IMG/VR virus record: IMGVR_UViG_3300049629_000715
Location: 1-61,346 of that record
Reading direction: 5' to 3' (one strand)
Source of the DNA: a virus
Taxonomy: Duplodnaviria; Caudoviricetes
DNA length: 61,346 bases
Position numbers and translations under genes: made by a program. The notes under the pieces are model-generated. The model was given only the letters and a program-made list of their open reading frames with translations, did not search any database and had not been told where the DNA came from. The stretch's first letter is position 1. Each line of letters starts with the position of its first letter. Positions 14,189 through 59,158 of this stretch are shown piece by piece.

Positions 14189-15154
14189 ATGGAAAACCTA
14201 ATAAATACGACAGTCGAATACATAAAATTGTGGAATCAAAATTGGCCGAGATCGGTCATTTTTTGGTCTGGCGGGAAAGATTCAACGGCATTGTTGCATC
14301 TGATCAAATTTCGTGCTGGCTTGGATTTGCCAGTTGTTCAGTTTCGAGAACCAAAATTCCGCGAACGATACGCTTATAGTGACAAACTCATTAAAGACTG
14401 GAAACTCGAAGTTCACGATTATCCGCCGCTTCGCGTTGCTTTGGCTGATGGGCCTGATGTCAATACTGGCGAGGTTCGCTTTGATCTACTGAAATACTTC
14501 CAATGGGGTCAAAAGTGCATGGTGATGAGCCTCGGAACAGAACGACCAAAAGAAGGCGAAGATTTTCTGTGTGGATTGAATGACTTTCTGTTTCGCCCAA
14601 CGGGAACATTTAATTGGCCTTGGGGCGCGGTTTGGATTGGAACGAAAAATACCGACACAGACCTCATTAAAGGCCAAGTTGCCGTAACAACTCACATTCG
14701 CTACGCAGACGGCTCCCCTGTGAGCTTGTATCCCCTGCGAGATTGGTCAGATAAAGATGTTTATGACTACTTGGAGCTTTCTGGAGTTGAACCTGATCCA
14801 ACTCGATACATTAAAGAAGGTGAAAACTGGATAAACAATCCTGACAAGAGCTTAAACGCAGATTTTTATCCTGTTTGCTTGAATTGCGTTGATCGCCACC
14901 AAGGGCAATATGTTGATTGCCCGAAATTGAAGGCAAAAACCAGCAATATCAGCCATCTCGCGCCTTACGAAGATATTGTTATTGATGACCTCGGGTTCCG
15001 TCCGGTAGATTGGAAAAAAAATAAATCAATATGTATGACTGTGAAACCTGCGGAGCCTGTTGCGCCTACAAATGGTCTTGGCCCGTCCTCAAACGAGATA
15101 AATCAGACGCAAACGGAATACCGCACGACTGGATTCGCCCAGACTACCCATTGA
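14189..15154 (+). CDS. PAPS-reductase/DndC-like PP-loop (adenine nucleotide alpha hydrolase) protein
   Basis: FWSGGKDS PP-loop, YPLRDWSDKDVYDYL motif, C-terminal CLNC…C. Confidence 0.8.
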   Translation: MENLINTTVEYIKLWNQNWPRSVIFWSGGKDSTALLHLIKFRAGLDLPVVQFREPKFRERYAYSDKLIKDWKLEVHDYPPLRVALADGPDVNTGEVRFDLLKYFQWGQKCMVMSLGTERPKEGEDFLCGLNDFLFRPTGTFNWPWGAVWIGTKNTDTDLIKGQVAVTTHIRYADGSPVSLYPLRDWSDKDVYDYLELSGVEPDPTRYIKEGENWINNPDKSLNADFYPVCLNCVDRHQGQYVDCPKLKAKTSNISHLAPYEDIVIDDLGFRPVDWKKNKSICMTVKPAEPVAPTNGLGPSSNEINQTQTEYRTTGFAQTTH

Positions 15155-19007: not shown

Positions 19008-22000
19008 ATGATTTCATGGGAACCGCCAGAAAAGGACAAAGAATCGAAACTTGAAGATGAGGCTTGGACTCCGCCAGATAAAGATCAAGAATCGACGATT
19101 ACTGCACAAGCAACTTCACAATGGACGCCTCCGGTTAAAGATGATCCAGACGATCTGGCGAACATAAAAGACCCGTTAAAGCTCAATTCGCTTAAACAAT
19201 CTGGTCAGCCGTTAAGCGAGGAGCAGGAAAGAATTGTTTTTGATTGGGAGGATGAAAAGCCAATCTCCCAAAGGGCGAGTGAATTTACCGCAAAAGCGAT
19301 TCCTGCGGCGGCAACGAGCCTCGCAGATATAGCTGTTGGTGGCGCAGAGTTTGGTTACAAAGGCATCTTGATGCCAGCCCAAGACATTCTGACTGGTGGG
19401 CTGTATTATTCGCCGGAAGAAAGAGCAAAAATCTGGCGCGAACAGAATTTATCAACAAGAGCATTGGCTTCTGGAGGCGCGCAAGGTCTTGATGAAGCTA
19501 TCGAAGCGGGAACTCGATTGGCAATTTACGGATCGTCGATTACCGATAAAATTCAAGGTTTGCCAAAAGAACAGCGATTCCGACGATACATGTCTCGGGA
19601 GACGATGCGGAAATTCGCTCAAGCCGCACGGGATGAAACTCCCGATACGCTCGCAAGGCTTGCCGCTGAAAGTCCGTTGATACAAAAGATGGTGACAACC
19701 ATCGTCGGAATGCAGGGAGCCGATCCAGAAGCGCAAAAAGTGGCTGTCGAGGAATACGAAAAATTGGTCAAAGAAAGCGGGTTGACCAAAGAGGAATTAG
19801 AAGAATTCAGGAAAATTGTAAATTTCGGTGATGTCAAAATGCCGACCTCTATTCCCGGAGCAAATACGGTGACTGCGGCTATTTCCAAGCCATTGACAGC
19901 GGCGACACGCAAAGCTGGTGAAGTTACCTTGAAAGGTTTGAATCTCGGAAGCAGGGCGACTGGCTGGACTGCTGGTAAAACGATTAAAGGCGGTGAGTGG
20001 GTTCAGCAAAAATCCAAAGACATCGGGCAGTATGCCGTAAATGATCCAGACACTTTTGTTAAAACAGCAACAAATACGCTGTTGGCTCCCGTCATGCTCG
20101 TTGCGAAGCCGACGAAAAGTGTTGCTGATGTAATAACTGACATCACTCGCCAAGTTGATAAAGGCGGAGCCGCTGGCCGAAAGGGAATGATCCAAAGGGC
20201 AGGAGAAGATATTCGCTCATCTGAATTGACTCGGAAACTTTTCGGGCGCGAAGGCAAAGGTGGCGTTGGTCGCGCTAGAGTTGCTGATTGGGCTATCAGG
20301 CAATCAAACGCAATGATTCAGCCCGGAGTTAGTTCGGGAACATTGAATGTTCTGATGGGATTGCCTGATGCCGAAACTGCGGCGCAAGCAGGACAACAAT
20401 TCGGCACGGGATTTGGCATGGGAGCATACGCCGGAAGCCGTGTTGAATCGCGTGTTGGCGGATTGATTGATCCACGGACAACGATGGCGCAGAAAATATC
20501 GAATCTTGTTACTCCTGACCCAACGCAGTTGCGCCGAGATCAAGACGCCGACATTAAAAGATTCATGGCTTCCGCTTCTCCTGAATTGGTTGGCCAAATG
20601 AAAGATTTGGCAAGTATTGATAAGCGGAAAGTTGCTGTTGATACAAGAATTTCTGAATTGGAAGAAATTCAAGCCAGAATGATCAACGAAGAGGATTCTG
20701 CATTTATTCAAAAACAGATTGATGGCTTAAAAAAACAAAAGGAAGCTCTCGCTAAATCTACGCCGGAAACTCAACGCGAATACGATCGATTGGTTCAACT
20801 AACAACGCTCGACATTATGGATCAGGCAAAATCAGTCGGATTGGCGGCTGGATTGCGCGGATTGAACTTGGTTTTCCTTGATCCAAAAAACGCAGAACAA
20901 TTCTACCGAAATCTGTATGGTCAGAATTTGATTGACGCTGAAAAAGCCATGGCTGTTCTCAAAAACAAGCCATTCATGACGCCTGATGAGGAAAACACCT
21001 TACGGCTGGCTAACGAAACGATGTCTTCGTTTTATCAAGATGTTCAGAATTTGGAAAATAGCCGAGGCATTTCTGTTCGGGAAAGCATCACTGATCCAGA
21101 AAGTCCAGATTTCGTTCCTTCGCATTTGCGCTATTTGAATCAACAAGGCGCAACGGCTGTTATCAATATGGACTTGGTGAAACACCTGACTAATCAGGGA
21201 TTCAATCTTCGCCATACCATGCAACATGAGGTGCAACATGCTTTGGAGAACTTCAAAGAAGTGCAGGACTTGATGGCTCCATTGCGCAAATATCTTTTTG
21301 ATCAAAAAGTAAAAACTCCAGATGGCGGAGTTGAAGTTGTTAGCAATGGCATATTCGACGATGAAAAACTTGACGCTTACGCGATGGTTTATGGCGATAG
21401 GTTTTCCCCGCAAGATGGAGGAGCAAGTTTCGTCGCTCAATTCGGCGGAGACATTGAAAAACAACGGAACTATATCAAACGCGAGATTCTTTCCGAGATT
21501 GCGGCTGTTGCGGGAGAATATCAAAGCGGAAGCAGGGCGGTTCTTGATGATGTCGGAAGAAAGGCTATCGACTGGCTGGAAGTGAAAACCCGTGACGGAT
21601 ACCTGAAGAAACTTAAAGAGGGGTTGCGTAAGGCTGGTGTCGTGTTTGACAAAACAGGCGGGTATTCTGAATTGCTTGACGCGAAACTTACGCCAGAGGT
21701 TCTCGCGGCTGTTCGTGAATATCAGAGGGGCGTTCGTGATATTAACGGAGCATTGACATATAATTCCGATATTGAGGCCGAGGAACCAGACATTCCAATC
21801 ACAAAAATTTTAGGTAATAGGGCATTGCAGGAAAAATATAAGGAAGTCGCCCCATTTGAGCTTGAGCCAGTAGTAAAGGTGACTCAACCAGACGGATCAA
21901 TCTCTGAAATCAAAGTTCCCGAGGGCGCAAATCTTGATTCATTAGTTGGGGTGTATCGCATCAAGGACGGAAAATTCATTGATGAGGACGGGAACGAAAT

Positions 22001-25000
22001 GGTTCTTGCGCCAGAAATCAACATCAGCGCAATGCCTGACGGAACGCAATTTCAAATCAATACCCGCATTGCGAGAAAACCTGATGGTAGCCCGATAACA
22101 ATTAGTAATCGGGAAATGAAACGCAGGGCTGTAGATCGCACGAAAATGATCATCGACGCGGTTAATTCTGCGCCTAAAGACGATTCCCCATATAGAATGA
22201 TTGATATTGGAAATGGGAATTATAGCGGGGCAATGTCGCCAAGCCAAGTTGAGGCATTAAGGAAAATCCCTAATCTTATCCTTTCACCAAACCTGAAACG
22301 CAAAATTGAGTTTCTAAATGACATTTTGCGCCGTGGTGACGGAACTCGCGTTATGATGGAATATCAAGCGTCATTGTTAAACGGAAAGTATCAGGCATTG
22401 TCCCCAAAACTCCGTGATGAGGTTCCTATTGGGTTTAAGATAACAAAAGACGGCAACTTTACGCTGACAACGATGTCTGTAAGCCGGATGCACGATAAAA
22501 TGAACGCATGGGCGTCAAATAAGCCAATGCGATTGCAGGCATGGGGTGGGGATACTGGGAAATTTTGGGATTCACTTATCAAATATCTCGACAACCACGC
22601 GCAAGGCAAACATGGCGAAGAAGGATTAGACCCTGACCCGTATATTGCGCTTCGCAAGAAATATGCAATCAACGATCTTTTCAATGTCTATAATGCAGAG
22701 ACAAAAGCGGCGAACCCTGAAAGAACAACACTTCCACGGCAAAAGGGAAAAGACCCTATAGATATTATCGTCCGATCAAGAAGGCTGGATCGCATCAATG
22801 ATTATAGCGAAATGAGCGCGCAAAAGTTGCCAATGAACTACGGCAAACTTCGGGACAATTACATGCCGGAAATCAATCCGCTTGCGCGTCCGCAATCGCC
22901 AGAAGACATGATGGCAAATCTTGATGGTAGCGTGACGGCAACAAGAATCCGCCAAGCCATCGCCAGCGGCAATGTGGAGCAACTGGAGTCCGAATTGCGG
23001 ATGAGTGATGACTTGCTCCCATTTGAATCATTGTATGTGTCACAGGGCGAAACTGGAGAACCGCAGATTCAGGTTGTATCCATGCTTGATCCGGGAATCG
23101 AGCCAAGCGTAGAGCGTTCTGAAATCCCAACAGACATTGATGCGGAAACAGAAGCTGAAATGGCTCGTTTGGATTCTGAATATGACATGGCAGAAATGGG
23201 CCAACAGGGCCAACAGGGCCAACTGGAACAACAACAGGGTCAACAGGGCCAACTGGAACAACAAAAGGGTCAACAGGATCAACAGGGCCAACAGGTGCCA
23301 ATGGCTCGCGCTGAATTCATTCCTTCTCAAGCTCAATACATGCCTGCTTTTAATTCAGATGAATACGGGTTAGAAGAAGGCCAAGAAGCGGAAAATCGTT
23401 TAACACCAAGAACGCTTTACAACCTTTATTATATCGCAACAGAACCAGAACCAACATCGGAATATGGCCGCGAAATCACAAATCAATACATAAATAAATA
23501 CAAAAACTTGTATGTTGATGTTTTTTCAAATTTAGTTCGCCAACAAATTGAAAAATACATTGGGAGAGGTCGCGTTGATTCCAATGTTACTAAAAAAGCT
23601 CTCGATAAAGCTGACACTCCCGCAATGCTTGATGAATTGATGCGGGGAACTTATCGGAGTGACATGCGGAGACGCAACGATGTTTGGAATACTGTTACCG
23701 AGCATTTGAAAAATCTCTCTGCCGCGACAACAAAGAAAGATAAAATTTTTTATATGGATCGCCTGAATAATTCGATTCATAACACGCAGGAGCTTCTTTT
23801 CAGCAAATTCAGCAATTATAGACAACTGCAAGAAGCATTTGATTCAATTCATAATGCGCGTGACACGCGAGCTTACTCGCAACGAGTCGATAAAGATTTG
23901 CGTGAATTTAACTCTTTCAGAGGAACGCAATACATGCCGCAAGTGCCAGCCGTAAATCAATACGGATTCTACTCTCGCCTTGAGGAAGGTATTCGCAACG
24001 CAAACCAGCAAACATTCTCGCCAGAGCAAGCAAAGGCTCTTGCTTTGAAATCCACAAACAAAGAGGAATTGAAGTGGTCTGGAATTGAAAATGCCATCAA
24101 CAATATCGCAGAAGAAAACAACGGCAAAGTTCCAAAGCAAGCATTGTTAGATTACATGGCAGACGAGGGGAAAGTTCAGTTTGAAGAAACCAATTTAGCA
24201 AAATTCAATCGCTCAGAGGAAATTGCTAAAAAATACGGAATTACTTTAGAAATAACGCAAGAGGAAGTTCTCGCGTGGGATAAAGATAATGAAAGTTTGG
24301 AGTGGGATGAATTCCCAGAAGAACTAAAGCAGGAATTGCTTCGCACTCAAAATATGCAGGAATATAAATATGCTAAATATCAACTTCCCGGAGGGCAAAA
24401 TTATCGTGAAGTTGTCTTGACGATGCCTGAAAAAGAAGCCGGAACAAAACAATACACTTATGATGATATAATTTTAACAAAAGGAAAATCTAATTGGAAG
24501 TTTAAAACAAAAGATGGTGTTGTGAGTGGTTCAATACCCGGAGGGTTATATCCTGAAGAAATTGCTCGTGATTACGCTTTGCAAATGGCGCAAACATCGG
24601 AATCTACACTTAAAAAACCTTCTGGAGAAAAATCAACATATACAAGTTCTCACTTCGCAAACATTCCAAACTATGTAGCGCATATGCGCTTGAATGAACG
24701 CACAGATGCCGAAGGCAACGATGGCTTGTTTATTGAAGAGATCCAGTCTGACAGGCATCAGCAGGGCAGGGAGAAAGGATATGCAGAGGAAAAAGAAGTA
24801 ACAGCAAAATTGGTCCCATTTAAGTACCCAAATGGCTTCATTGAATATTATTATCATATATATGATCCTAAAACAGACAAGCCAATACTTCGAGATAATG
24901 GCGAGCCTGTTACTCTTGCAAAAGGATTTGGCAAACAGCAAAGATCAGAGCAAGATGCAATTAGAATATATAAAGAAAGTGTTGCCAATCTTGTTCCAGA

Positions 25001-28000
25001 CGCACCATTTCGCAAAGATTGGCCACTGCAAATGTTCAAGCGTGCATTGCGTGATGCTGTTGAATCTGGAAAGAAATGGATCGGGTGGACTGATGGAGAA
25101 ACGCAAGCTGATCGGTATGACTTGAGTCAACAAGTAAGTGAAATAATTGCATGGCCTGTCGGAGAAGAAGGCGCATTTAAGTTTGTTGACAATAAAGACG
25201 CCAAAAAAATGTTTGTGACAGTGCGAGGACTTAAAGGAAACACAATTTTTGAACAAGCGGTTGAAAAGGGAAAACTATCTGATCTTGTTGGAAAAGATTT
25301 GGCAAATAAAATGATTTCTCAAATCGGATCAGAATCAGTAACATACTCAGGCCCAAATCTCAAAATCGGCGGCGAAGGCATGAAAGAATTCTACGACACC
25401 ATCCTTCGTAACAAACTTGGCGAGTATGTAGACAAGATGGGTGGGAAAGTTGAGAAGTCTAAAATTCAAACGGGTAAAAAATACGACTTTGAATTATTTA
25501 ACCCTGAAGGAGAACCAAAAGGCGTGTTTGTTCTCCGAGATCGAATGACAGGTAAATTTTTGGCAGATAGTGAAAAAGAAACTTTTTTATCTCGCGCAGA
25601 AGATGGAGAACTAATGTCTCAAAAAGTTGCAGAGTCAATGATTGAGGCATTTTCTAAAGATACTGAAACCCCAATCTGGCGAGTAAACATCACGCCAGAA
25701 ATGCAAAAATCGGTTCGCGCTGGGCAACCGCAATACATGCCATATATCCCATATTCTATGCCGAAAGATCCTCGGCAGATTATGGCGGATTTCTATTTGC
25801 TAACGACTGTTGGCGACATCGCAAAGAGTGCGGGAGAAAACTGGCGCATTGCTTTCGATCCAGAAAGAACAACGATTCAAGGAAAAGCAACTGATCTACA
25901 AAAGCTTCTGACATTGCCAACACGCCAAGGTCTGAACTACGAAAAATACGGACAGAATCTTGAAGACGCAGTTCAGAAACTCACGCAGGGAATGAAGAAG
26001 CACATGCTGGATTCTCTCTTGTTTTCGATTTCGGCAGAACTTCGCCACTATAAAGCAAATCGTCAGCCAGAGGAATTGTTGGATAATCCTTTCATGAAGG
26101 CGTATTCCAAGATTTACGATGCTTACGACGCTGTTGCAGACAAAAATCTTCCTGAATACGCACAAAAATACTTAAAGCCAATGTATCCAGAAACGCCGAG
26201 GGCGAGGATTTCAAAAGGTAGCAGAAAAAGTTATCAGCTTTCAAATGCGGCAGTAAGAAAAGCATTTGAGGAAACAGGAATATCAATTTCAGAATTCGCT
26301 GATATAGCAGAAAAATTATTTCGAGAAGGAAATTGGAATAAACAATTTGGCGGAGAAAATTGGGGGAATATTGCCGCAGGATTGCAAATGGTTGATCAAG
26401 CCAACGATCCTGAATCTCTCATTAAAGCTCTTGATAACGCTTACGATCTTCAACACAATACGGGAGTTGTATTTGATAAAATTCAAAAATATGCTCGCGA
26501 AGGCGGTTATCAATGGTTGCAGGACATGTTGGATTTCAAATATCACGCCGGAAGCCCACGGGAATTTGCGTCTTTGGCAAGTTCTGCGGCGAAACGGATC
26601 ACCGCGCCAGCATTGATTGATATTGGTGATATCGCAATAGATAAACGCCGAGAGAACGCAGTTGCGGTTGCTGGTGAAGATACAATTTCAGATATTGAGG
26701 ATCAGATTCGCCGACTAAAACCGAACAGAGAGAACATATATCAAGACATCAATGTTAAGGCTCCGAAATATACTGGCAAAGACATCAACGAAGAATTGCA
26801 AAAATGGCTCGTAAATACAACGACATCGGGATTCTCGCAGACACCGAATAAATTGAAAAAGCTCGGAGTGAATTCAGATGTCATTCAATATGTAAGATTG
26901 CTTTTAGCGCAAAAGATGGCTCCGAAATGGAATGTTCCGCAAGACATTAAGGAAATGGTGTCAAAATCAGTTGCGAAATCTAAAGCGAAAAATCAAACAG
27001 AAGTAGAATATGGGCCTCCGATTGGAATTCCTGAAAAATCAAATCTTGCAAAAGTTCCCGCGCCAGTAAAGGAAGGGGGAAATATCATTCCTGCTGATAT
27101 TGGTGAATTGAAACAACAGATTCACAAATTGATGCACCTGCACACGGAATCAGATATTGGAACGATGGTTCCGTATAAAGGATTGATGTTTTCTGGAATG
27201 AAGAATATCCCCGCAAATACTTTCACGATTAAAATTTACAAAGACGGAACTAAAATTGATGAAGCAACTTTCAATCTGAAATCGCCTGTCTATGATAATT
27301 CCGTATACGCATATCTTTACTATAATACGCCAGTAAAAGAACAAACAAAAGCAGAAAATCTTGCTGATCTCGCATTGCCTTCTCAAGATATAAAATGGAC
27401 TCCTGTTTATAGCGGAAAAGGAGAATATGTTAATTTTGTGAATGGAGATGAACCAATCTCAACGGATATGACAGCATACTTCGATGGGAAGCCATTATTT
27501 GCTGAATTTATATTAGACGGAGATGCTTTGCATATCAAAACAGAAAAAGGAGACGATTATTCAATTCCTTTTTCACATGAATCAAGCGCAGACGCAAAAT
27601 CTTCTTTCATTCAACAAATGCTTGGAAAATATACAGATATTGTTAGCGATATAAAAGAATACGAAGGAATAGATTTATCTTTCACTCCGCCAAAACCAGC
27701 TTCTTTAGCACAAACAAAAGCCCCATCATCCGAGCCTTCTTTGTCACCAGATTTTAGGCCTGTCGCAATGACGATAGAACAACTGAAACAGTTAATCGTA
27801 AATCCGAAGACAGGAGAAATCTCAACACAACCGCTGAAAATTCTGATTAATACAGAGTTGAATTATTTTCCGGAAGAAAAAAAGAGTGGATTGGCTATAT
27901 GGGGAACGAAATACGCAGAATGGGCAAAGAAAGCTTCTGCCGAGGAACTATGGCCGTCTGTTACCGGAAAGCCATATGAAGATGTTGCATCCCAAAAGTC

Positions 28001-28925
28001 ACAGTCGCTGAAATCCGAGGATCAAGCTATTGCTGACTACAAAGATTACAAAAAATTCAAATACGACCAATGGTATGCCGATCAATCGAAGAAATTAAAA
28101 GAGAAGCTACCTGATGAAGTCGTTAAAACGATATTGGATTTTGCTTGGGTTCAAACTGACACAGGTTCCACTATTCCGACAGTAGAAGAAGTGTTCCAAA
28201 AAGTTAAAAACAAATTAGGCAATCTTCTTTTATCAACGGATGACATAAAACTTTTGAATGAATCTATCGATTCTGCAATCGGAGAAGCGGCAAAAGGAAT
28301 GTTTTCTGTAAATCCAACATCATTAGAGAAAATTCCGAGTTTCATGAATTCGCAAAAAGTAATGGAATTATATGAAGCGGTAAAAGCGGGAATCTCTTGG
28401 GATGACACGGAAGGCGGAGAATCGATTTCTGACAATCTTGAAGAATTAAATCTTTCTGAACTCTCTGATGAGAATATCGAAGAACTCAAGAAATGGTATA
28501 ACTCGGTTCTGGATTACGAGAACGAGAAAAAAGAATTCTACGGGGAATTTAAAGAGGAAACGAACGAGCAGAAAAACGCTGAAACTGATCCGGAGGTTGA
28601 TTATTACAAAAAAGCGTTCAATGAATTCGTAAATTACGACTGGAAAGAATTGTCATCTGGGCCAGAATTTGCGAAAGATTTAGTTGAATATCTATTCGGC
28701 TCCAAAGATTTTGATTTTGCGATGAATAGAACCATTTCAGTTGGGAGAAAATTTTTAGTTCCTTACGCTCCCGGAGGAGACAAAGTTTATATTCTTCACG
28801 GCAAAGATCAGAATATAGATGGTAGCGTGATTTTTGATATGTCGAAAAAGACAAAAGAGCAGACCAAACAAGAGATGATTGATTGGGTTGCGCATTTCAT
28901 CGATTACTACGATCCTAAAATCTGA
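19008..28925 (+). CDS. Giant (3305 aa) polyvalent-type internal virion/ejection protein with HExxH metallopeptidase-like motif
   Basis: Uninterrupted ORF; HEVQH at aa 740; IEEIQSD module; repeated YMP linkers. Confidence 0.75.
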   Translation: MISWEPPEKDKESKLEDEAWTPPDKDQESTITAQATSQWTPPVKDDPDDLANIKDPLKLNSLKQSGQPLSEEQERIVFDWEDEKPISQRASEFTAKAIPAAATSLADIAVGGAEFGYKGILMPAQDILTGGLYYSPEERAKIWREQNLSTRALASGGAQGLDEAIEAGTRLAIYGSSITDKIQGLPKEQRFRRYMSRETMRKFAQAARDETPDTLARLAAESPLIQKMVTTIVGMQGADPEAQKVAVEEYEKLVKESGLTKEELEEFRKIVNFGDVKMPTSIPGANTVTAAISKPLTAATRKAGEVTLKGLNLGSRATGWTAGKTIKGGEWVQQKSKDIGQYAVNDPDTFVKTATNTLLAPVMLVAKPTKSVADVITDITRQVDKGGAAGRKGMIQRAGEDIRSSELTRKLFGREGKGGVGRARVADWAIRQSNAMIQPGVSSGTLNVLMGLPDAETAAQAGQQFGTGFGMGAYAGSRVESRVGGLIDPRTTMAQKISNLVTPDPTQLRRDQDADIKRFMASASPELVGQMKDLASIDKRKVAVDTRISELEEIQARMINEEDSAFIQKQIDGLKKQKEALAKSTPETQREYDRLVQLTTLDIMDQAKSVGLAAGLRGLNLVFLDPKNAEQFYRNLYGQNLIDAEKAMAVLKNKPFMTPDEENTLRLANETMSSFYQDVQNLENSRGISVRESITDPESPDFVPSHLRYLNQQGATAVINMDLVKHLTNQGFNLRHTMQHEVQHALENFKEVQDLMAPLRKYLFDQKVKTPDGGVEVVSNGIFDDEKLDAYAMVYGDRFSPQDGGASFVAQFGGDIEKQRNYIKREILSEIAAVAGEYQSGSRAVLDDVGRKAIDWLEVKTRDGYLKKLKEGLRKAGVVFDKTGGYSELLDAKLTPEVLAAVREYQRGVRDINGALTYNSDIEAEEPDIPITKILGNRALQEKYKEVAPFELEPVVKVTQPDGSISEIKVPEGANLDSLVGVYRIKDGKFIDEDGNEMVLAPEINISAMPDGTQFQINTRIARKPDGSPITISNREMKRRAVDRTKMIIDAVNSAPKDDSPYRMIDIGNGNYSGAMSPSQVEALRKIPNLILSPNLKRKIEFLNDILRRGDGTRVMMEYQASLLNGKYQALSPKLRDEVPIGFKITKDGNFTLTTMSVSRMHDKMNAWASNKPMRLQAWGGDTGKFWDSLIKYLDNHAQGKHGEEGLDPDPYIALRKKYAINDLFNVYNAETKAANPERTTLPRQKGKDPIDIIVRSRRLDRINDYSEMSAQKLPMNYGKLRDNYMPEINPLARPQSPEDMMANLDGSVTATRIRQAIASGNVEQLESELRMSDDLLPFESLYVSQGETGEPQIQVVSMLDPGIEPSVERSEIPTDIDAETEAEMARLDSEYDMAEMGQQGQQGQLEQQQGQQGQLEQQKGQQDQQGQQVPMARAEFIPSQAQYMPAFNSDEYGLEEGQEAENRLTPRTLYNLYYIATEPEPTSEYGREITNQYINKYKNLYVDVFSNLVRQQIEKYIGRGRVDSNVTKKALDKADTPAMLDELMRGTYRSDMRRRNDVWNTVTEHLKNLSAATTKKDKIFYMDRLNNSIHNTQELLFSKFSNYRQLQEAFDSIHNARDTRAYSQRVDKDLREFNSFRGTQYMPQVPAVNQYGFYSRLEEGIRNANQQTFSPEQAKALALKSTNKEELKWSGIENAINNIAEENNGKVPKQALLDYMADEGKVQFEETNLAKFNRSEEIAKKYGITLEITQEEVLAWDKDNESLEWDEFPEELKQELLRTQNMQEYKYAKYQLPGGQNYREVVLTMPEKEAGTKQYTYDDIILTKGKSNWKFKTKDGVVSGSIPGGLYPEEIARDYALQMAQTSESTLKKPSGEKSTYTSSHFANIPNYVAHMRLNERTDAEGNDGLFIEEIQSDRHQQGREKGYAEEKEVTAKLVPFKYPNGFIEYYYHIYDPKTDKPILRDNGEPVTLAKGFGKQQRSEQDAIRIYKESVANLVPDAPFRKDWPLQMFKRALRDAVESGKKWIGWTDGETQADRYDLSQQVSEIIAWPVGEEGAFKFVDNKDAKKMFVTVRGLKGNTIFEQAVEKGKLSDLVGKDLANKMISQIGSESVTYSGPNLKIGGEGMKEFYDTILRNKLGEYVDKMGGKVEKSKIQTGKKYDFELFNPEGEPKGVFVLRDRMTGKFLADSEKETFLSRAEDGELMSQKVAESMIEAFSKDTETPIWRVNITPEMQKSVRAGQPQYMPYIPYSMPKDPRQIMADFYLLTTVGDIAKSAGENWRIAFDPERTTIQGKATDLQKLLTLPTRQGLNYEKYGQNLEDAVQKLTQGMKKHMLDSLLFSISAELRHYKANRQPEELLDNPFMKAYSKIYDAYDAVADKNLPEYAQKYLKPMYPETPRARISKGSRKSYQLSNAAVRKAFEETGISISEFADIAEKLFREGNWNKQFGGENWGNIAAGLQMVDQANDPESLIKALDNAYDLQHNTGVVFDKIQKYAREGGYQWLQDMLDFKYHAGSPREFASLASSAAKRITAPALIDIGDIAIDKRRENAVAVAGEDTISDIEDQIRRLKPNRENIYQDINVKAPKYTGKDINEELQKWLVNTTTSGFSQTPNKLKKLGVNSDVIQYVRLLLAQKMAPKWNVPQDIKEMVSKSVAKSKAKNQTEVEYGPPIGIPEKSNLAKVPAPVKEGGNIIPADIGELKQQIHKLMHLHTESDIGTMVPYKGLMFSGMKNIPANTFTIKIYKDGTKIDEATFNLKSPVYDNSVYAYLYYNTPVKEQTKAENLADLALPSQDIKWTPVYSGKGEYVNFVNGDEPISTDMTAYFDGKPLFAEFILDGDALHIKTEKGDDYSIPFSHESSADAKSSFIQQMLGKYTDIVSDIKEYEGIDLSFTPPKPASLAQTKAPSSEPSLSPDFRPVAMTIEQLKQLIVNPKTGEISTQPLKILINTELNYFPEEKKSGLAIWGTKYAEWAKKASAEELWPSVTGKPYEDVASQKSQSLKSEDQAIADYKDYKKFKYDQWYADQSKKLKEKLPDEVVKTILDFAWVQTDTGSTIPTVEEVFQKVKNKLGNLLLSTDDIKLLNESIDSAIGEAAKGMFSVNPTSLEKIPSFMNSQKVMELYEAVKAGISWDDTEGGESISDNLEELNLSELSDENIEELKKWYNSVLDYENEKKEFYGEFKEETNEQKNAETDPEVDYYKKAFNEFVNYDWKELSSGPEFAKDLVEYLFGSKDFDFAMNRTISVGRKFLVPYAPGGDKVYILHGKDQNIDGSVIFDMSKKTKEQTKQEMIDWVAHFIDYYDPKI
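23197..23296 (+). repeat. Tandem GQQ/QQG low-complexity repeat inside the giant ORF
   Basis: ggccaacag / ggtcaacag units encoding GQQGQQGQLEQQQGQQGQLEQQKGQQDQQGQQ. Confidence 0.9.
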
Positions 28926-29629
28926 TGTTCTCCGCGATTGGCTCACTTCCGAAACACAGATATGTGTTCGTTGATTCCCGTTTCACTCACGAAGAGCCAT
29001 GCGGGTATGTTCCGGCAGTTTGGTTTGGGCTGGTCAGTTTTCCCGGCAGAGCGTGGGGATGCCATGTGATGTTAGAGTGTGGTGCGGTTTATCGCTCCCT
29101 GCCACCTCATGCTCTCTCTTTTACCGAGAATCCGGAGGAATGGTCAGTTGAGCAGGCGCAGATGTGGGATTGCTACGGGACGCGCTGGTCAGCGGAGGAA
29201 TACACCTATCTGCGAGGATTGAAAGTTACCTGCAAAGTCGAAGGCAAGCTGTATGATGGCGATTATCTTTTCACTATCGCGCCGTTGGAGGATGGGTTCA
29301 GCGAAGCTCCTGAACAATCGAAAGAATTTATGTTCTGCAAACTGGATAATGGCAGATTGACAATTCAGCCGACAAATAGGGTTCTTTTTGAAGATCGCAG
29401 TTTTACTGGCGGGGAAATGCCAAAGTTGAAATTGCAAACTGACACCTATTCTTGCGAGCAAAACCCACCGCTAACCGAACGCAAACCCAAGCCTATCCCA
29501 ACGCAAACCCTCCCATTCCCCAATACCCATTCCCCATTATTAAAAATAAAAAACCTTTTCAATTCCGGAAAACGAGTTTTAATCCGCATCGCCAGAATTT
29601 TCTGGCATCAAAATAAATACAACCCATAA
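28925..29629 (+). CDS. Conserved-looking phage hypothetical protein with an origin-like C-terminal extension
   Basis: GAVYRSLPPHAL…QMWDC…NGRLTIQPTNR globular part, then a Pro-rich tail derived from repeats. Confidence 0.7.
   Translation: MFSAIGSLPKHRYVFVDSRFTHEEPCGYVPAVWFGLVSFPGRAWGCHVMLECGAVYRSLPPHALSFTENPEEWSVEQAQMWDCYGTRWSAEEYTYLRGLKVTCKVEGKLYDGDYLFTIAPLEDGFSEAPEQSKEFMFCKLDNGRLTIQPTNRVLFEDRSFTGGEMPKLKLQTDTYSCEQNPPLTERKPKPIPTQTLPFPNTHSPLLKIKNLFNSGKRVLIRIARIFWHQNKYNP
29461..29535. repeat. Iteron-like C-rich repeats, second copy
   Basis: Shares AACCCACCGCTAACC, AAACCCAAGCC, CGCAAACCCTCCCA and CCCAATACCCAT with 39376-39434. Confidence 0.8.
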
Positions 29630-29808: not shown

Positions 29809-30443
29809 TGGTAATGCCATCCAATAATTCCGGAATAATGATCGGATATCTTGCTGGTAAATATCCAAACAGGATCGGATGGTTATTATCTCCTGATGGT
29901 TGGAGAAAACCTCCTTCATGGATGCCATACGCTCTTGACAACGGAGCGTATGGAGCATGGTCAAACGAGCGCGAATGGGATGCTAAATCGTTTCTTGATT
30001 TAATTGAGAAATCTAAAACAGCGCACAAACCTCGTTGGGTTGTTATTCCTGATGTAGTAGCAAATCGGGAATTAACAATCCTTCGCTGGCATGAATGGAT
30101 GCCAAAAATCAAGAGCCGTCTTTTCGGTGTTGCATATGCTTTTGCTGTGCAAGATGGAATGACGCCTAAAGATGTTCCCGATGAAGCCGAGGTTATTTTC
30201 GTCGGAGGAACAACCGAATGGAAGTGGCGAAATCTGCATACTTGGACAAATAATTTTCAAAGAGTCCATGTTGGCAGGGTAAATTCTGAACGCATGCTTT
30301 GGATGTGCCATGAAGCAGGAGTGGAATCCTGCGATGGAACAGGCTGGATGCGAGGCGGAGAAGAACGATTAGAAGAACTAAATAGATATTTGGAACAATC
30401 AACAGGAGGCGACAAACGCCAACAACAACAATTAGCACTATGA
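29805..30443 (+). CDS. Short TGT/DpdA-like (7-deazaguanine transglycosylase-like) protein
   Basis: ALDNGAY, VIPDVV, AVQDG, FVGG, VHVGRVN and SCDGTGW motifs; adjacent to queD. Confidence 0.6.
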   Translation: MMVMPSNNSGIMIGYLAGKYPNRIGWLLSPDGWRKPPSWMPYALDNGAYGAWSNEREWDAKSFLDLIEKSKTAHKPRWVVIPDVVANRELTILRWHEWMPKIKSRLFGVAYAFAVQDGMTPKDVPDEAEVIFVGGTTEWKWRNLHTWTNNFQRVHVGRVNSERMLWMCHEAGVESCDGTGWMRGGEERLEELNRYLEQSTGGDKRQQQQLAL

Positions 30444-30820
30444 ATAAACAAGAAAGACTCAACGCAACATTCCGGCTTTGGAAGGACTTTACTTTTGAAG
30501 CGGCACATCAACTTACAAAGGTTCCCGTAGGACATCAATGCGGGAGATTACACGGGCATAGTTATAAACTTCGCGTCCATTGCCAAGGCAAACTTGATCC
30601 GGAGCGAGATTGGGTTGTTGATTATTCAGATATTGCCACCGCAGTTCGTCCTGTAATTCAAAAACTCGACCATTCATTCCTTAATGATCATTTTGATTTT
30701 GAAACGACCGCCGAAAATATAGCTTGGTGGATGATTCATGAAATTAAACAAAAACTTCCATGGCTTTACGCTGTTGAATTATTTGAGACTCCCACAACAT
30801 CCGTTTATGTGGAAATGTGA
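30440..30820 (+). CDS. queD: 6-carboxy-5,6,7,8-tetrahydropterin synthase
   Basis: FEAAH, CGRLHGHSY, LDHSFLND, TAENIA and ELFETP motifs. Confidence 0.92.
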   Translation: MNKQERLNATFRLWKDFTFEAAHQLTKVPVGHQCGRLHGHSYKLRVHCQGKLDPERDWVVDYSDIATAVRPVIQKLDHSFLNDHFDFETTAENIAWWMIHEIKQKLPWLYAVELFETPTTSVYVEM

Positions 30821-31660: not shown

Positions 31661-32422
31661 ATGTTAGCTACAATCAATCAACTCACGGCAATCGATGCCG
31701 CCCATGCCGCCTCAACAACCAGCGAAAAATACGGATTCGTTTCTACCCGCTCGGTTATCGACAACCTCACAAGCCTCGGCTTCACCACTCGCTCGATTCA
31801 GATTGCGCGAGCCAATAAAGAGGAACGCAAAGGCTTTCAGAGGCATATCGTCCGAATGCAACATTCCTCGCTCATGCCGAAAGTTGGCGATTCATTCCCC
31901 GAGGTTGTTCTGATCAACTCCCACGATGGCGGTTGCTCCTACCGAATGATGCTCGGAATGTTCCGCCTTCTCTGCTCTAACGGAATGGTATCTGGAAACA
32001 TTCAAGACGAGCTTCGGTTCGTTCACCGGAAGGCAAATCTCGACAAGATCAAAGATGGCGTATTCTCCATCGTTGACAGAGCCGCCAGACTCTCCGATGT
32101 CGTTTCCCGCATGAAATCCCGCGAACTCACTCTTCCGGAGCAGGCGCACTTCCTCGACGAAGCAGTCCGCATCCGTTACAAAGCTCCCGAAGGCGATGTT
32201 TCTCTAGAGGATATTCGTGAATTCAATCATCGCCGCGATTCGCTCAATCAGCTTCGCCGCTATGAAGATCGCGGGAATAATCTTTGGCTTACATTCAACC
32301 GCATTCAAGAGAACCTTACACAAGGTCGCCGTGGTAGCGGTGTTCGCCGGATTACCTCTCCTCACACGGATGTTTCCGTGAATCGTGAACTCTGGAATCT
32401 CGCGGAAAATTTCTTGAACTAA
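31661..32422 (+). CDS. DUF932 family protein
   Basis: SEKYGFVST, LINSHDG, GMFRLLCSNGM, LWLTFNRIQENL and NRELW motifs. Confidence 0.85.
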   Translation: MLATINQLTAIDAAHAASTTSEKYGFVSTRSVIDNLTSLGFTTRSIQIARANKEERKGFQRHIVRMQHSSLMPKVGDSFPEVVLINSHDGGCSYRMMLGMFRLLCSNGMVSGNIQDELRFVHRKANLDKIKDGVFSIVDRAARLSDVVSRMKSRELTLPEQAHFLDEAVRIRYKAPEGDVSLEDIREFNHRRDSLNQLRRYEDRGNNLWLTFNRIQENLTQGRRGSGVRRITSPHTDVSVNRELWNLAENFLN

Positions 32423-34649: not shown

Positions 34650-35066
34650 ATGCAAACATTCCTGCCTCATAAATGCTTCACCAAATCGGCGGCATCATTA
34701 GATAATCGCCGACTCGGTAAACAGCGTGTCGAATGCCTTCAAATCCTGAATGCGCTTCACAACCCTGAATACGGCTGGCAAAACCATCCCGCGACGAAAA
34801 TGTGGCGCGAGGATAAAGGTTCTTTGGTTCACTACGGACTCGCTATCTGCGACGAGTGGATTCGCCGTGGCTACAAAGATACCTGCCGCGATAAAATCAA
34901 AGCGTATTTGCAAATTGCCGACCTCTCGCGGAAAACTACTCCGCGCTGGGTGACTGACGATTTGTGCGTTTCGCATCAGAGTAACCTCATCCGTAAATTT
35001 CCCGAGCATTACGCTCCGCAATTTCCGGGTGTTTCAAACGATCTTCCGTATGTCTGGCCAGCCTGA
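34650..35066 (+). CDS. Pyrimidine dimer DNA glycosylase (DenV/endonuclease V-like family)
   Basis: MQTFLP…LDNRRLGKQRVEC…NHPATKMW…SHQSNLIRK…YVWP. Confidence 0.85.
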   Translation: MQTFLPHKCFTKSAASLDNRRLGKQRVECLQILNALHNPEYGWQNHPATKMWREDKGSLVHYGLAICDEWIRRGYKDTCRDKIKAYLQIADLSRKTTPRWVTDDLCVSHQSNLIRKFPEHYAPQFPGVSNDLPYVWPA

Positions 35067-38742: not shown

Positions 38743-39064
38743 ATACCAAGAAGAACTATGTTTCGATAAACCAACAACAAAACTCGGCCAAGCATTCGAA
38801 AAATACCACGCAGAAAACCCGAATGTGTATCAGGCACTTGTTGATTTAGCTCGAAAAGCTCGAAGATACCGACCTGATCGTGTGATCGGAATTCAAATGC
38901 TGTTTGAAGTGTTGCGCTGGAATTATTACACTTCCGTTTATACCACCGAGGAATACAAATTTCCGAATGCGTTTGCGGCTGGTTATTCCCGCCTCATTAT
39001 GAAAAATGAGCCTGATTTGCGGGGGATTTTTCGTATCGCCAAAAGTGAATTTGATGCTGAATAA
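38735..39064 (+). CDS. Conserved phage hypothetical protein
   Basis: FEKYHAENPNVY…FEVLRW…YSRLIM. Confidence 0.7.
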   Translation: MNKYQEELCFDKPTTKLGQAFEKYHAENPNVYQALVDLARKARRYRPDRVIGIQMLFEVLRWNYYTSVYTTEEYKFPNAFAAGYSRLIMKNEPDLRGIFRIAKSEFDAE

Positions 39065-39068
39065 TTCT

Positions 39069-39725
39069 GTGAACTATTACACCTATCACATAGGCGATTA
39101 CCGAACCGCCACGGCTCACCTTTCATTAGAGGAAGACGCCACCTACAAGCGGTTGCTGGATTACCAATACGACAAAGAATGCCCGATTCCCGATGATTCG
39201 GCGGTTATGGCGCGGAGATTGCGAAGCACGGAGAAACTTGTTTCTGATATGCTCGCGGAATTCTTTACGCTTACGGAACAAGGATGGGTCAATCAACGGG
39301 TATGGAATGAAGTTGGCAAACATCAGGAATTCATAGAAAAACAAAAGCATAACGGGAGAAAAGGAGGGAGGATGAAAACCCAAGCCGAACCCACCGCTAA
39401 CCCACCGCAAACCCTCCCAATACCCAATACCCATATCCCAATAGATAAAAAGGCAATCAACTTTGAAAATCTGCCGGAACCTCTCAATACCGAACAATTC
39501 AAAGAAGCGTGGAAGCGGTTCGTGAAATACAGGGCAGAAAGAAAAAAACCAATCTATCAAACATCAATGGAATCAAAATGGAAACAGATGGAATCTTGGG
39601 GTGTTGATTCTGCCATCCAAGCTATCGAAAACACGATTTCAAATGGTTGGCAGGGAGTTTTCCCGCCTCACGGAGAAAAGGCAAAGAAGAAACAGGATTC
39701 GAGTATTTTCAGGGGGTCTTTCTGA
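39069..39725 (+). CDS. Replication initiator (DUF1376/YdaU-like)
   Basis: NYYTYHIGDY…HLSLEE…RLLD; C-terminal I-x-NGWQG-x-F; GTG start at 39069 or ATG at 39054. Confidence 0.85.
   Translation: MNYYTYHIGDYRTATAHLSLEEDATYKRLLDYQYDKECPIPDDSAVMARRLRSTEKLVSDMLAEFFTLTEQGWVNQRVWNEVGKHQEFIEKQKHNGRKGGRMKTQAEPTANPPQTLPIPNTHIPIDKKAINFENLPEPLNTEQFKEAWKRFVKYRAERKKPIYQTSMESKWKQMESWGVDSAIQAIENTISNGWQGVFPPHGEKAKKKQDSSIFRGSF
39374..39445. promoter_or_regulatory. Putative replication origin iterons inside the initiator gene
   Basis: Clustered AACCC-containing repeats in the inter-domain linker, as in lambdoid O-type genes. Confidence 0.6.
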
Positions 39726-40796: not shown

Positions 40797-41030
40797 ATGT
40801 ATATCATTATTAGAATCAAACAATACGATGGCGAAAAAGGGAAATATTGGGGTGTGGATCACGGTCACGGATTTCCTTCTGTTCTGCACGAACGATACGA
40901 TGAAACAACAGAAGAAGCCTCTCGTTTAGCAAAGCAAAATCCTGACTGCCATTTTGCGATTTTTGAATACGACACAGCCGCAATTTGTAAAATGCAACCT
41001 CCAATTTGGATCGAGAAAGAAGACCTATGA
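40797..41030 (+). CDS. Hypothetical protein
   Basis: EEASRLAKQNP…FAIFE motif. Confidence 0.65.
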   Translation: MYIIIRIKQYDGEKGKYWGVDHGHGFPSVLHERYDETTEEASRLAKQNPDCHFAIFEYDTAAICKMQPPIWIEKEDL

Positions 41031-42142
41031 GATTTCACATTCTTGGATTACCGCATACTGTTACGAATAAAGAATTTGTTGCGTGCGCTTATACGCAGAA
41101 AGTTCTGAAATTTGGGAAAATGATGAAAGACCTCGGACACGAGATCATTCATTACGGCCACGAAGATTCAGAGCTTATGTGCGACGAGCATGTCACAGTT
41201 CTGACCAACGACGATTTCCAGAAAAGTTATGGTTCCCACGACTGGAAAAAAACCTTTTTCAAGTTTGATACTGGCGACCATGCGTATCAAACCTTCTACG
41301 CCAACGCGATTCGGGAAATTGCAAAGCGAAAACAACCGAACGATTTTCTTCTTCCATTTTGGGGATCAGGAGTCAGAGCAATTTGTGACGCTCACGGCGA
41401 CATGATCGTTGTAGAACCGGGAATCGGATACGCTGGAGGACATTGGGCGCGGTGGAAAATTTTTGAATCCTACGCGATTTATCACGCTTATTGCGGATTA
41501 GAGTCTGTAGGAACTTGCCGCCAAGATTGGTATGAAGTTGTTATTCCGAACTATTTCGACCCCAAGGATTTTGAATACAATGAAAACAAAGGCGATTACT
41601 ATCTTTATCTTGGCCGAGTTTATGGCGGCAAAGGATGCGAAATCGCATTTCAAGCGGCAAAGCTGGCAAATGTTAAATTGATCGTCGCCGGACAAATTGA
41701 ACAAGGCTACAATCTGCCAGACCATGTGGAATATGTCGGCTACGCCGATTCAGAAAAAAGAAAAAACCTGATGAGCAACGCCAAGGCATCTTTCATCCCT
41801 TCGCAATACATTGAGCCGTTCGGAGGAGTTCAAGTTGAAAACCTTTTCTGCGGGACTCCAACGATAACAACTGACTGGGGAAGTTTCGCGGAAAACAATC
41901 TTCACGGAGTCACCGGATACAGATGCCGAACGATGGGGGATTTTGTTAGAGCGGTTCAACTAATTGAATCAGGAATGATAAAATCAAAAAATTGTCGCCT
42001 ATGGGCTGAAAACTTCTCTTTGGAGAGAGTTGGCAGGCTTTATGAGAAGTATTTTAAGGATGTTCTGGATGTTTATACTGGCAAAGGCTGGTATGCAGAT
42101 TGCAATGGTTTAACTCCTTTGATGAAAACATATCCGTATTGA
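41027..42142 (+). CDS. GT-B (GT4-like) glycosyltransferase
   Basis: YLGRV…KG, EPFGGVQVE…GTPTITTD…HGVTGY. Confidence 0.9.
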   Translation: MRFHILGLPHTVTNKEFVACAYTQKVLKFGKMMKDLGHEIIHYGHEDSELMCDEHVTVLTNDDFQKSYGSHDWKKTFFKFDTGDHAYQTFYANAIREIAKRKQPNDFLLPFWGSGVRAICDAHGDMIVVEPGIGYAGGHWARWKIFESYAIYHAYCGLESVGTCRQDWYEVVIPNYFDPKDFEYNENKGDYYLYLGRVYGGKGCEIAFQAAKLANVKLIVAGQIEQGYNLPDHVEYVGYADSEKRKNLMSNAKASFIPSQYIEPFGGVQVENLFCGTPTITTDWGSFAENNLHGVTGYRCRTMGDFVRAVQLIESGMIKSKNCRLWAENFSLERVGRLYEKYFKDVLDVYTGKGWYADCNGLTPLMKTYPY

Positions 42143-42148
42143 TAAAAT

Positions 42149-42730
42149 ATGAAATTTGATTTTGTTGATATCGGAACAAGCGATTTTGATCTCGGATATG
42201 GTTCAGTTGGCTTGCAGTCGAGCCATCTTCTTATTGAACCCGTCAGCTACTACCTTAACAGGATTCCTGAAGCGGAAGGAGTTGTGAAAATAAATGCGGC
42301 AATATCTGATCGTGACGGAGAAGGGGATGTGTATTATTTAAGCGAGGAAACAATCGCAGAATTAAAATTGCCTTTTTGGGTCAGAGGTTGCAATCGGATT
42401 AGCAGTCCGCATCCGACATTGGTAAAAATACTAAATGGTCAAGATGCGTGGAGCATTCAAAAAATTAGAACGATAAAATTTTCAACGCTGATTCAGGAAT
42501 TGAAAATTGAGGCCATCGGGAGCTTGAAAATCGACACAGAAGGACTTGATCATATTGTCTTGAGTGGCGTTGCTGATTGCATCGATTCAGGACTATCGGT
42601 TGATCGCGTAATGTGCGAGTGGGTTCCTGCTTTCGGAAACACAGAACAACTTAAAGAACTATGTTTCAGATTGTGGAATTATTTCCCGAAACAAGAATTA
42701 AAAGGCGAAGACATTTATCTGACAAAATGA
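42149..42730 (+). CDS. FkbM-like methyltransferase
   Basis: FVDIGTSDFD, IEPV, NAAIS and LKIDTEG motifs. Confidence 0.8.
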   Translation: MKFDFVDIGTSDFDLGYGSVGLQSSHLLIEPVSYYLNRIPEAEGVVKINAAISDRDGEGDVYYLSEETIAELKLPFWVRGCNRISSPHPTLVKILNGQDAWSIQKIRTIKFSTLIQELKIEAIGSLKIDTEGLDHIVLSGVADCIDSGLSVDRVMCEWVPAFGNTEQLKELCFRLWNYFPKQELKGEDIYLTK

Positions 42731-59148: not shown

Positions 59149-59158
59149 AATATTGAAT

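Follow-up and report, generated by a model that had tools for sequence, protein, structure and literature searches.

A recurrent [FY]MP tag at the module junctions of a giant phage protein: a candidate self-processing effector polyprotein

The giant gene and its junction motif

The DNA considered here, virus record IMGVR_UViG_3300049629_000715 (Duplodnaviria; Caudoviricetes), whose whole analysed stretch of 61,346 bp is referred to as the window, is a complete virus record with an exact 64-bp terminal direct repeat (1-64 and 61283-61346). Its recognisable genes all lie on the + strand and encode tail fibres, virion proteins, recombination and replication functions, glycosyl- and methyltransferases and terminase. 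Our subject is a giant open reading frame (ORF) that is the last of the tail/virion gene block; its upstream neighbour abuts it, its downstream neighbour overlaps it by 1 base, and its product is punctuated by four copies of a short junction motif, [QN]YMP, which we also call the tag (Table 1).

All four sites stand where an earlier note on this DNA, made from the letters alone, had placed them, and no other [FY]MP occurs in the protein. From composition 0.018 copies of [QN]YMP would be expected, and four were reached in none of 20,000 shuffles. Within the family, N1284 and P1287 of the first motif are invariant, its third residue being M, L or F among relatives. As that note had also claimed, the three later copies share an 11-mer, CAATACATGCC (at 23334, 23928 and 25731), which is found nowhere else in the window; alone it carries little weight, since codon choice exists only at Q and Y and C-ending codons are preferred before ATG anyway. 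Indeed, a signal at the DNA level was considered and rejected: TTC accounts for 94% of F codons at FMP (n=184) against 81% at F-M without a following P (n=100), largely a general F-M codon-pair effect, and the third base of the motif's proline codon follows gene-wide usage. Elsewhere in the + strand frames, inside listed genes, [FY]MP is represented by a single IYMPE (nt 39785, in a DnaC-like gene). The change of sequence character that had been remarked at each site matches the limits of homology, the blocks shared with other proteins by BLASTP spanning amino acids (aa) 1-~1363 (the core), 1442/1465-1644/1646, 1640-2245 and 2241/2243-2539.

Table 1 Features of the giant gene and its product, with positions in the window
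Feature	Position	Strand	Residues and remarks
Giant ORF	19008-28925	+	3305 aa plus stop; open throughout; 16% of genome
Conserved core	19008..22856	+	aa 1-1283; near full length in 66/120 listed homologues
H740-E741-V-Q-H744	21225..21239	+	predicted helix (model residues 51-55 in helix 45-57)
E826-I-L-S-E830	21483..21497	+	separate later predicted helix (model 127-147)
Beta-barrel region of core	22215..22850	+	aa ~1070-1281; WYL/Sm-like resemblance
Junction motif 1, N1284-Y-M-P1287	22857..22868	+	NYMPE; Y1285 at nt 22860
Core extension and acidic Q/G-rich spacer	22869..23333	+	aa 1288-1442; 159 aa and isoelectric point 4.05 for residues 1286-1444
Junction motif 2, Q1443-Y-M-P1446	23334..23345	+	QYMPA; Y1444 at nt 23337; starts with CAATACATGCC
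HNT module 1	23346..23927	+	aa 1447-1640; at positions 2300-3000 in other proteins
Junction motif 3, Q1641-Y-M-P1644	23928..23939	+	QYMPQ; Y1642 at nt 23931
600-aa module ('EIQSD')	23940..25730	+	aa 1645-2241; in ~85/120 listed homologues, at varied positions
Junction motif 4, Q2242-Y-M-P2245	25731..25742	+	QYMPY; Y2243 at nt 25734; 'GQxQ[FY]MP' tail of 600-aa module
HNT module 2	25743..26624	+	aa 2246-2539; directly after the core in other lineages
C-terminal region	26625..28922	+	aa 2540-3305; no motif; common to just 4-10 homologues

The motif across relatives

A first homologue search of 5.8 billion proteins gave 177 relatives, and counts on 120 refer to that number among the matches listed. 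Most of these 120 have the N-terminal ~1,290-1,360 aa in common and are divergent thereafter. The consensus in the relatives is [QRNK]-[FY]-[M>L>S/T]-P, with up to 10 copies per protein, and a longer form of it reads [GP]-[GQD]-x-[QRN]-[FY]-M-P-[AEG]-[EV]; typically, LTTNYMPAVN at the end of the core is followed by such sites as PITQFMPA, GQLQFMPAE, PDIRFMPAE and TGLQFMPAEG. In a set of 121 proteins [FY]MP was observed 382 times against 28.9 expected (at least two copies in 86, none in 26), and no tripeptide of the set was more strongly enriched than FMP, at 19.9x. A further sample of 129 new 50%-identity cluster representatives, collected with a profile of core aa 690-1300, contained 224 copies against 22.6 expected, and two or more motifs were present in 60 of its 90 proteins of at least 1,800 aa. 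The top tripeptides of the other 30 are TPE (7.3x), FSP (6.3x) and FTP (5.6x), which, judged by sequence, is the same motif with a small third residue. Motifs are spaced at a domain-sized median of 253 aa (n=546). In P0053-P0070 and their relatives many C-termini read '...[AS]RFMPGYN' followed by ~60 residues, the last tag being conserved.

The third residue differs between lineages. In the clade P0003-5/L011 (70% identical) each of the three homologous sites reads Y-L-P, L071-L076 have eight [FY]LP and no FMP (L at 8/8 sites), P0278 and P0285 have six S/T/A-type sites each, and L082 also shows the motif with a small third residue. Of 180 proteins with at least three sites, M dominates in 146, L in 24 and a small residue in 10, and within-protein purity is 0.780 compared with 0.696 +/- 0.007 on shuffling, a value that 0 of 2000 shuffles reached, relatedness being uncontrolled in this comparison. 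Strict concerted switching was tried as a description and dropped, given that the first site takes M, L or F independently of later sites and that L027 mixes M and L.

The core segment defines a family of 654 clusters (50% identity) matching at E<=0.001, all of whose members come from metagenomes. Searching 50,697 phage records by tblastn with core aa 1-1290 and with the core of the second family described below gave no match to a cultured phage, and a scan of one genome per prokaryote species gave no copy of the core.

Module ends and cassette exchange

All-against-all BLASTP of the 121 proteins yielded 20,648 blocks of at least 80 aa, and the ends of these blocks fall on the motif: 5,567 of 16,195 lie 0 to +9 from its F/Y, compared with 219 of 16,750 random positions, and they are most frequent on the proline (1,987 at +2, 1,180 at +3). 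Block starts cluster at -2 and -1, and 1,993 of 15,250 are within -10 to -1. In an alignment of the 600-aa module, homology extends from just past one tag to 'TPIWRVNITPEM..V..GQ.Q[FY]MP', and both flanks are unrelated. In nine relatives all 16 of the best Pfam stretches lie between consecutive motifs and none across one, the families concerned being ART-PolyVal, LPD37, PBECR5, DUF7178, three GNAT models, PcfJ, ParB_N and DNA_methylase.

One exchange can be followed directly in a close relative, L049, which has about 90% nucleotide identity to the window in the flanks. Identity between the two runs through the end of the core and the spacer to aa 1439 and is then lost across HNT module 1, in place of which L049 carries a small GNAT-like cassette; at the DNA level it restarts with the first base of the codons for QYMP in motif 3, CAATACATGCCGCAAG. 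Both the block ends and this swap answer a check proposed in the earlier note: homologues do gain and lose modules precisely at [FY]MP.

The link that had been drawn to polyvalent proteins is borne out by the families found between motifs in relatives (ART-PolyVal, PBECR5, LPD37, GNAT and others). By its sequence features the giant protein belongs to the polyvalent proteins of phages: it is 3305 aa long and encoded on a virus genome, at least five of its homology blocks recur in varied order elsewhere, and proteins with the same core carry ART-PolyVal, PBECR5, LPD37, DUF7178, GNAT, ParB_N, PcfJ and C5-methylase (DNA_methylase) domains.

Motif position in linkers, and the same modules without it

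In an AlphaFold model of aa 1600-2300 (21-row alignment; mean predicted local distance difference test, pLDDT, 59.7), of which roughly model residues 57-639 are folded, motif 3 (model 42-45) and motif 4 (model 643-646) are coil with pLDDT <50, just outside the folded part; the low values near them are partly due to the alignment being non-homologous beyond the tags. In a model of core aa 690-1300 (41 rows, pLDDT 76.1) the NYMP of motif 1 comes directly after the last helix, and the chain beyond is disordered. Structure prediction, which had likewise been suggested as a check, places the motifs at domain boundaries, in low-confidence coil. The hydrophobic fraction of the 12 aa after a tag is 0.199, compared with 0.278 before it and 0.285 at random positions (n=723).

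The same modules also occur without the motif. Homologues of the 600-aa module that stop after it keep 'GQPQ' or 'GQALF' and have no MP (e.g. '...GQPQVSKDTDIFANLV'), and among 120 homologues there is none whose end lies 6 aa or less from a motif. ART-PolyVal ends as '..PDIRFMPA' in core-bearing proteins and as '..PDIRYSPA' in an S/T lineage, compared with '..PDIRFAAT', '..SDIRMSRG', '..PDIRFSRG' and '..NPSILARR' in coreless polyvalent proteins. These controls suggest that the aromatic residue can be the module's own end, and that the whole tag is a property of this family's junctions.

The motif follows the core

When proteins were classified with a hidden Markov model (HMM) of the core, core-bearing proteins had several tags, and giant polyvalent proteins sharing only the 600-aa module had 0-2. 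The association was counted in 217 non-identical proteins of at least 1,500 aa with an HMM of the HExxH segment described in the next section: at least two tags are present in 160 of 172 proteins that match it, as against 16 of 45 that do not. Eight of the 12 HMM-positive exceptions are cut by a 3' contig end; of the 16 HMM-negative ones, 7 are split or without an N-terminus, 8 have another HExxH, and P0099 is unexplained. The core itself avoids the motif. Across 186 proteins [FY]MP occurs upstream of the first site, that is, in the core, twice in 242,109 aa against 14.7 expected, and downstream of the core 511 times in 282,483 aa; control tripeptides occur within the core at 0.7-2x expectation, and the proteins being related, we attach no probability to this depletion.

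A second family of viral contigs (L086-L108; 36-44 kb) encodes polyproteins of 1.5-2.5 thousand aa with the signature 'PLYTLGHELFHALE' and the same tags. The core HMM matches these proteins in two places only, the HExxH segment at positions 707-914 (E ~1e-20) and the barrel at 1019-1194 (E ~1e-8). Their HExxH reads 'HELFH', and some members have 'HEILH' instead, without an HMM match.

The conserved core

The HEVQH at aa 740-744 and the downstream EILSE that had been picked out in the core are both present, and HExxH and E826 are invariant family-wide: H740, E741 and H744 are conserved in 67/67, 17/17 and 41/41 aligned cores, down to 24% identity, as is E826, and E830 is 97% conserved. E826 lies 86 residues past H740, a long spacing, and is, on sequence and model, a candidate third zinc ligand. 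In the accessible part of a comparative study of polyvalent proteins, their zincin-like peptidases are described as having an HExxH helix, a Glu on a later helix and, separating them, inserts that vary (PMC5512222), an arrangement like that of HExxH and E826 on separate predicted helices here. The nearest ESM Atlas clusters to the HExxH region are LPD23/LPD1 (score 0.93), with the family on 18% of members.

The C-terminal half of the core, which is also found in the second phage family, ends in the beta-barrel. Its structural matches are PafBC (6sj9_B; Z 8.3, root-mean-square deviation (rmsd) 2.6, 92 aligned), BrxR (7qfz_A; Z 7.8) and CapW (9c5g_B; Z 7.1), Z values that are middling, the tool's typical best Z being 7-8, a range common for unrelated models.

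Cassettes after the core

On the whole giant protein Pfam found no family, polyvalent-protein, GNAT and RNA polymerase models included; PHROGs matched a family of unknown function alone (PHROG 20946, aa 2421-2500, within HNT module 2), and PADLOC gave nothing useful, with one weak match at E 0.0019. Hydropathy reaches a maximum of 1.26 in the protein, which has no transmembrane-type hydrophobic segment. The two HNT modules are probably distant paralogues, to judge from an hhalign probability of 87% (E 3.7e-6, 99 columns; plain BLASTP E 0.042). Family searches with aa 2540-3305, the C-terminal region, gave no family.

In the model of the 600-aa module large insertions interrupt a GNAT-like core, and the top VIA-align rows are nearly all of the GNAT superfamily: Elp3 (5l7j_A; Z 10.0, rmsd 2.4, 110 aligned) and NatD (4ua3_B; Z 9.4, rmsd 3.1, 126 aligned) are the best, 15 chains, including the tRNA-acetylating toxins AtaT and TacT, have Z 10.0-8.0, and the anti-CRISPR AcrVA5 has Z 7.8. 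The alignment covers only 110-140 of ~600 residues in a model with mean pLDDT 59.7. In GNAT enzymes the loop that binds the acyl-CoA pyrophosphate has the motif Q/R-x-x-G-x-G/A, and an invariant K-[IV]-G-G-E-G-M-K stretch of the module would fit this loop with K replacing Q/R. Near-invariant motifs of the module are YTSSHF, EExQSDRHQ, PDAPFRKDW and GGEGMK. The module also occurs in giant polyvalent proteins that have no core (P0089-P0121; up to 5,651 aa) and in 434 homologues of 333-1,063 aa at E<=0.001, many of them on short contigs and some probably fragments; tblastn gave weak phage matches, for example to Dolichospermum phage Dfl-JY45 (27% identity, E 4e-28). A reading of 'GQLQF' as a clamp-binding motif was dropped, other cassettes ending PDIRF, TGLQF or SGARF.

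Other features of the phage record

No tRNA genes were found in the record, and Pfam and PHROGs scans of the complete genome recognised no protease gene, many genes being without assigned function. A tail-fibre ORF at 59153-61345 has no stop before the record ends, so that the sequence is probably a circular or permuted assembly. It is paralogous to tail-fibre genes at 1338-3221 and 3235-4965, the three containing collagen-like G-x-y repeat DNA (repeat families D1-D3), and part of it lies in the 58-60 kb bin that has the highest GC content of the window (0.536). A C-rich 74-nt imperfect direct repeat with AACCC-type periodicity (29473-29546 and 39377-39450; 77% identity) has its copies in the 3' parts of ORFs 28925-29629 and 39006-39725, which are unrelated to each other.

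Likely DNA-modification genes lie at 14189-15154, 30440-30820, 41006-43632, 48497-49408 and 57064-57663, the set comprising a PAPS-reductase-like, a PTPS/QueD-like, three glycosyltransferase and two methyltransferase functions; one glycosyltransferase matches phrog_3408 at E 6e-182 and another resembles beta-glucosyl-HMC alpha-glucosyltransferase. This gene set suggests that the phage DNA is hypermodified. Also present are a DUF932 protein (31661-32422; Pfam E 1.9e-31) and a homologue of pyrimidine-dimer DNA glycosylase (34650-35066; Pfam E 1.9e-25). The 25 nt upstream of each of 20 gene starts are mostly A/T-rich and without a Shine-Dalgarno sequence, which may indicate a host not relying on such sequences, such as Bacteroidota.

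Interpretation and alternative explanations

We consider it somewhat more probable than otherwise that the gene product is a polyvalent effector polyprotein in which the tags are both cleavage sites for the zincin-like domain of the core and cassette boundaries. A tag that sits in linkers at the ends of unrelated folds and is enriched more than tenfold, avoided by the core, missing from those folds in other proteins, recoded by lineage and tied to the core looks like a set of recognition sites for the protein's own protease. Under this explanation, a conserved N-terminal core (~1,285 aa, with the HExxH...E domain and a small beta-barrel) would be followed by a variable train of effector cassettes, each closing with a tag where the folded module passes into a flexible linker. 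The tag would have a single reader that evolves along with the protein, most likely the zincin-like metallopeptidase of the core itself, and the HExxH domain, perhaps assisted by the barrel, would cut the chain at each tag and so release the cassettes, inside the capsid or after delivery into the host; packaging in the virion and delivery would fit the gene context, namely the tail/virion gene block. The products expected in this phage would have masses of about 142, 18, 23, 68 and 120 kDa. Zincins usually place a large hydrophobic residue in S1', and for this reason the bond between [FY] and [ML] would be the favoured scissile bond, a choice that the S/T lineages fit less well. As every cassette ends in a tag, a cassette pasted at a tag would be releasable at once, which would make the tag an exchange boundary as well. 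A more specific proposal, that the HExxH-plus-barrel unit reads the four-residue tag and frees up to ten effectors, and that lineages recoded the tag together with its reader, is offered tentatively, as we think it a little likelier to be wrong than right.

Several points weigh against cleavage by the core. We infer cleavage, the role of the HExxH domain as the enzyme, the scissile bond, and packaging and injection from sequence and models, and this candidate peptidase domain was matched to no known peptidase. Pfam matches in the 41 members of alignment A2 are sub-threshold (Peptidase_M48 in 5/41, best E 0.014; SprT-like in 2/41, 0.07), Foldseek on the core model gave no match at E<=0.001 and no zincin, VIA-align listed no zincin for the same model, the HExxH part being barely covered by the listed rows, and PDB profile searches with the core returned nothing useful, as did those with the HNT module and the 600-aa module. 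The core model started at aa 690, and its residues 1-30 have pLDDT 53-59 with no sheet there, a zincin being expected to have a three-stranded sheet ahead of the HExxH helix. The left, spacer-to-GNAT junction in L049 is without a tag, as are the last 1,062 aa of the window protein. In the P0003 clade M has given way to L at all three sites, and the HEVQH helix is identical; candidate columns for covariation of the third residue with the HExxH domain were seen, confounded by relatedness (L and S/T come from few clades), and all motif counts are from related sequences and are not independent events. Finally, the virion RNA polymerase (vRNAP) of phage N4 has a zincin-like domain, yet is packaged uncut according to the accessible part of the study already cited (PMC5512222), so zincin-like domains need not process their own chain.

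One competing explanation is that the tag is a cassette boundary only, a recombination joint and linker cap in a protein that works uncut, and we regard it as unlikely. A recombination joint was one of the alternatives named in the earlier note, and the L049 swap supports it while being compatible with cleavage: one cassette has been replaced between the window and L049, with identity returning from the first base of CAATACATGCC onwards, the motif is where homology blocks end, the 11-mer occurs three times in the gene, and the same part of PMC5512222 provides in N4 vRNAP a precedent for an uncut giant virion protein. However, the constraint is on the peptide and not on the DNA (the third base of Pro follows gene-wide usage, any of Q, R, N and K may stand at position -1, and the TTC bias is general), homologous recombination needs a longer stretch than the ~8 nt at most that the peptide fixes, and modules such as ART-PolyVal and the 600-aa module also occur, untagged, in coreless polyvalent proteins. 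Core depletion and lineage-wide recoding, moreover, point to a protein reader. That reader might bind without cutting, the tag being a docking motif for the core's WYL/Sm-like barrel, for a capsid or portal surface by which the chain is ordered during packaging and ejection, or for a host factor, although we think this distinctly unlikely. Binding of nucleic acid or of short peptides containing Pro is common among Sm/SH3-like barrels, the barrel segment resembles such folds (Z 8.3-7.0: PafBC, BrxR, CapW) and is conserved alongside the motif in both phage families, and position, enrichment, avoidance and recoding fit any protein reader. Yet the barrel match is middling, the invariant HExxH...E in the same conserved unit argues for catalysis, and docking leaves unexplained why a tag lies at each cassette end and nowhere else.

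Little probability, in our estimation, attaches to cleavage at the tags by some other protease, either of the host or an unrecognised maturation enzyme of the phage, with the HExxH domain acting otherwise. Library and fold searches do not confirm that domain as a peptidase and many phage genes are without assigned function, but scans of the complete genome with Pfam and PHROGs bring up no protease gene, and a maturation protease should cut head proteins too, whereas the motif elsewhere amounts to one stray IYMPE. Furthermore, in two phage families that differ in genome size the motif goes with the HExxH-plus-barrel unit, and coreless proteins with the same modules are without it. The other alternative in the earlier note, that translation starts internally at the tag's ATG and gives separate module proteins, we reject as almost certainly wrong, even though 24 of 120 database homologues of the 600-aa module begin 'MP', several of them exactly at the tag. 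'MPDQQGFY' occurs in 8/8 fuller loci (L086-L093) after R[FY] and inside an open frame of 1,047-2,460 aa, whole lineages have Leu (CTT 47%) or Ser/Thr at the Met position, the residues ahead of the Met are conserved, and the four sites are without the A/T-rich leader of this phage's real starts. Natural gene fission at the tag was discarded on the same grounds, 'MPDQQGFY...' starts being internal to long ORFs in all eight fuller loci, and the 'MPNKGS' start of P0188 is an in-module position in L082 and not a natural split.

Relation to known systems and implications

Polyproteins of RNA viruses and retroviruses, and the internal proteins of phage T4 (LxE, prohead protease), are cut at short sites by a virus-encoded protease. 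The N-[FY]/P sites of HIV protease are superficially like N-[FY]-M-P, but the protease classes differ and there is no homology. MARTX proteins, secreted bacterial toxins, carry arrays of effectors joined by unstructured linkers, a cysteine protease domain that cuts after Leu, and modules that are shuffled between strains; the logic is alike, protease class and site differ, and we claim no homology. In polymorphic toxins, demarcation motifs (VENN of CdiA, PxxxxDPxGL of Rhs) mark the point at which variable cassettes are exchanged. There the motif stands ahead of one terminal cassette, whereas in the phage family there are up to ten cassettes, with the tag at the end of each.

The closest relationship is with the polyvalent proteins described by Iyer, Burroughs, Anand, de Souza and Aravind in 2017, for which, in the accessible part of that paper, an embedded zincin-like peptidase is predicted to release domains (PMC5512222). 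The protein shares with those described there a giant, multi-domain architecture, coding by a mobile element and an HExxH-plus-Glu hub domain (PMC5512222); it differs in that Pfam models, those for polyvalent proteins included, do not match it, that its core is unmatched in library models and that its junctions are spelled out by a short, core-specific tag. With gp50, the N4-like virion RNA polymerase as presented in the same part of that source, it has in common its size (a giant protein taking up ~15% of a 60-70 kb genome), a position beside structural genes and an HExxH (PMC5512222), whereas it has neither an RNA polymerase domain (Pfam) nor sequence similarity to N4 vRNAP (tblastn). In the accessible part of the 2017 paper no motif for cleavage or for junctions is named, and neither 'FMP' nor 'linker' occurs there (PMC5512222); in a literature search that took in neither subscription journals nor that paper's supplements we found no recurrent inter-domain site of this kind in tailed phages and, in full text, neither the motif nor the core family. 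Consequently, while the polyvalent class and the idea of self-processing are already known, what appears new is a family that is large and uncultured, whose core is unmatched and whose junctions follow an explicit code.

No site being named in that part of the 2017 paper or in the literature found, the self-processing idea has so far been hard to test. The family described here makes the candidate sites explicit and offers, as candidate enzyme, a domain whose invariant residues can be mutated, with natural controls at hand in tagless copies of the same modules and in lineages with an altered tag, and its junction code makes a nine-year-old prediction directly testable. If our interpretation is correct, the tags would divide unannotated giant phage proteins into effector units for counter-defence screens, and they would account for the free exchange of effectors among these phages, as a new cassette recombined at a tag would be releasable immediately. 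The family would then be a tailed-phage counterpart to eukaryotic viral polyproteins and MARTX, and a source of orthogonal protease/site pairs.

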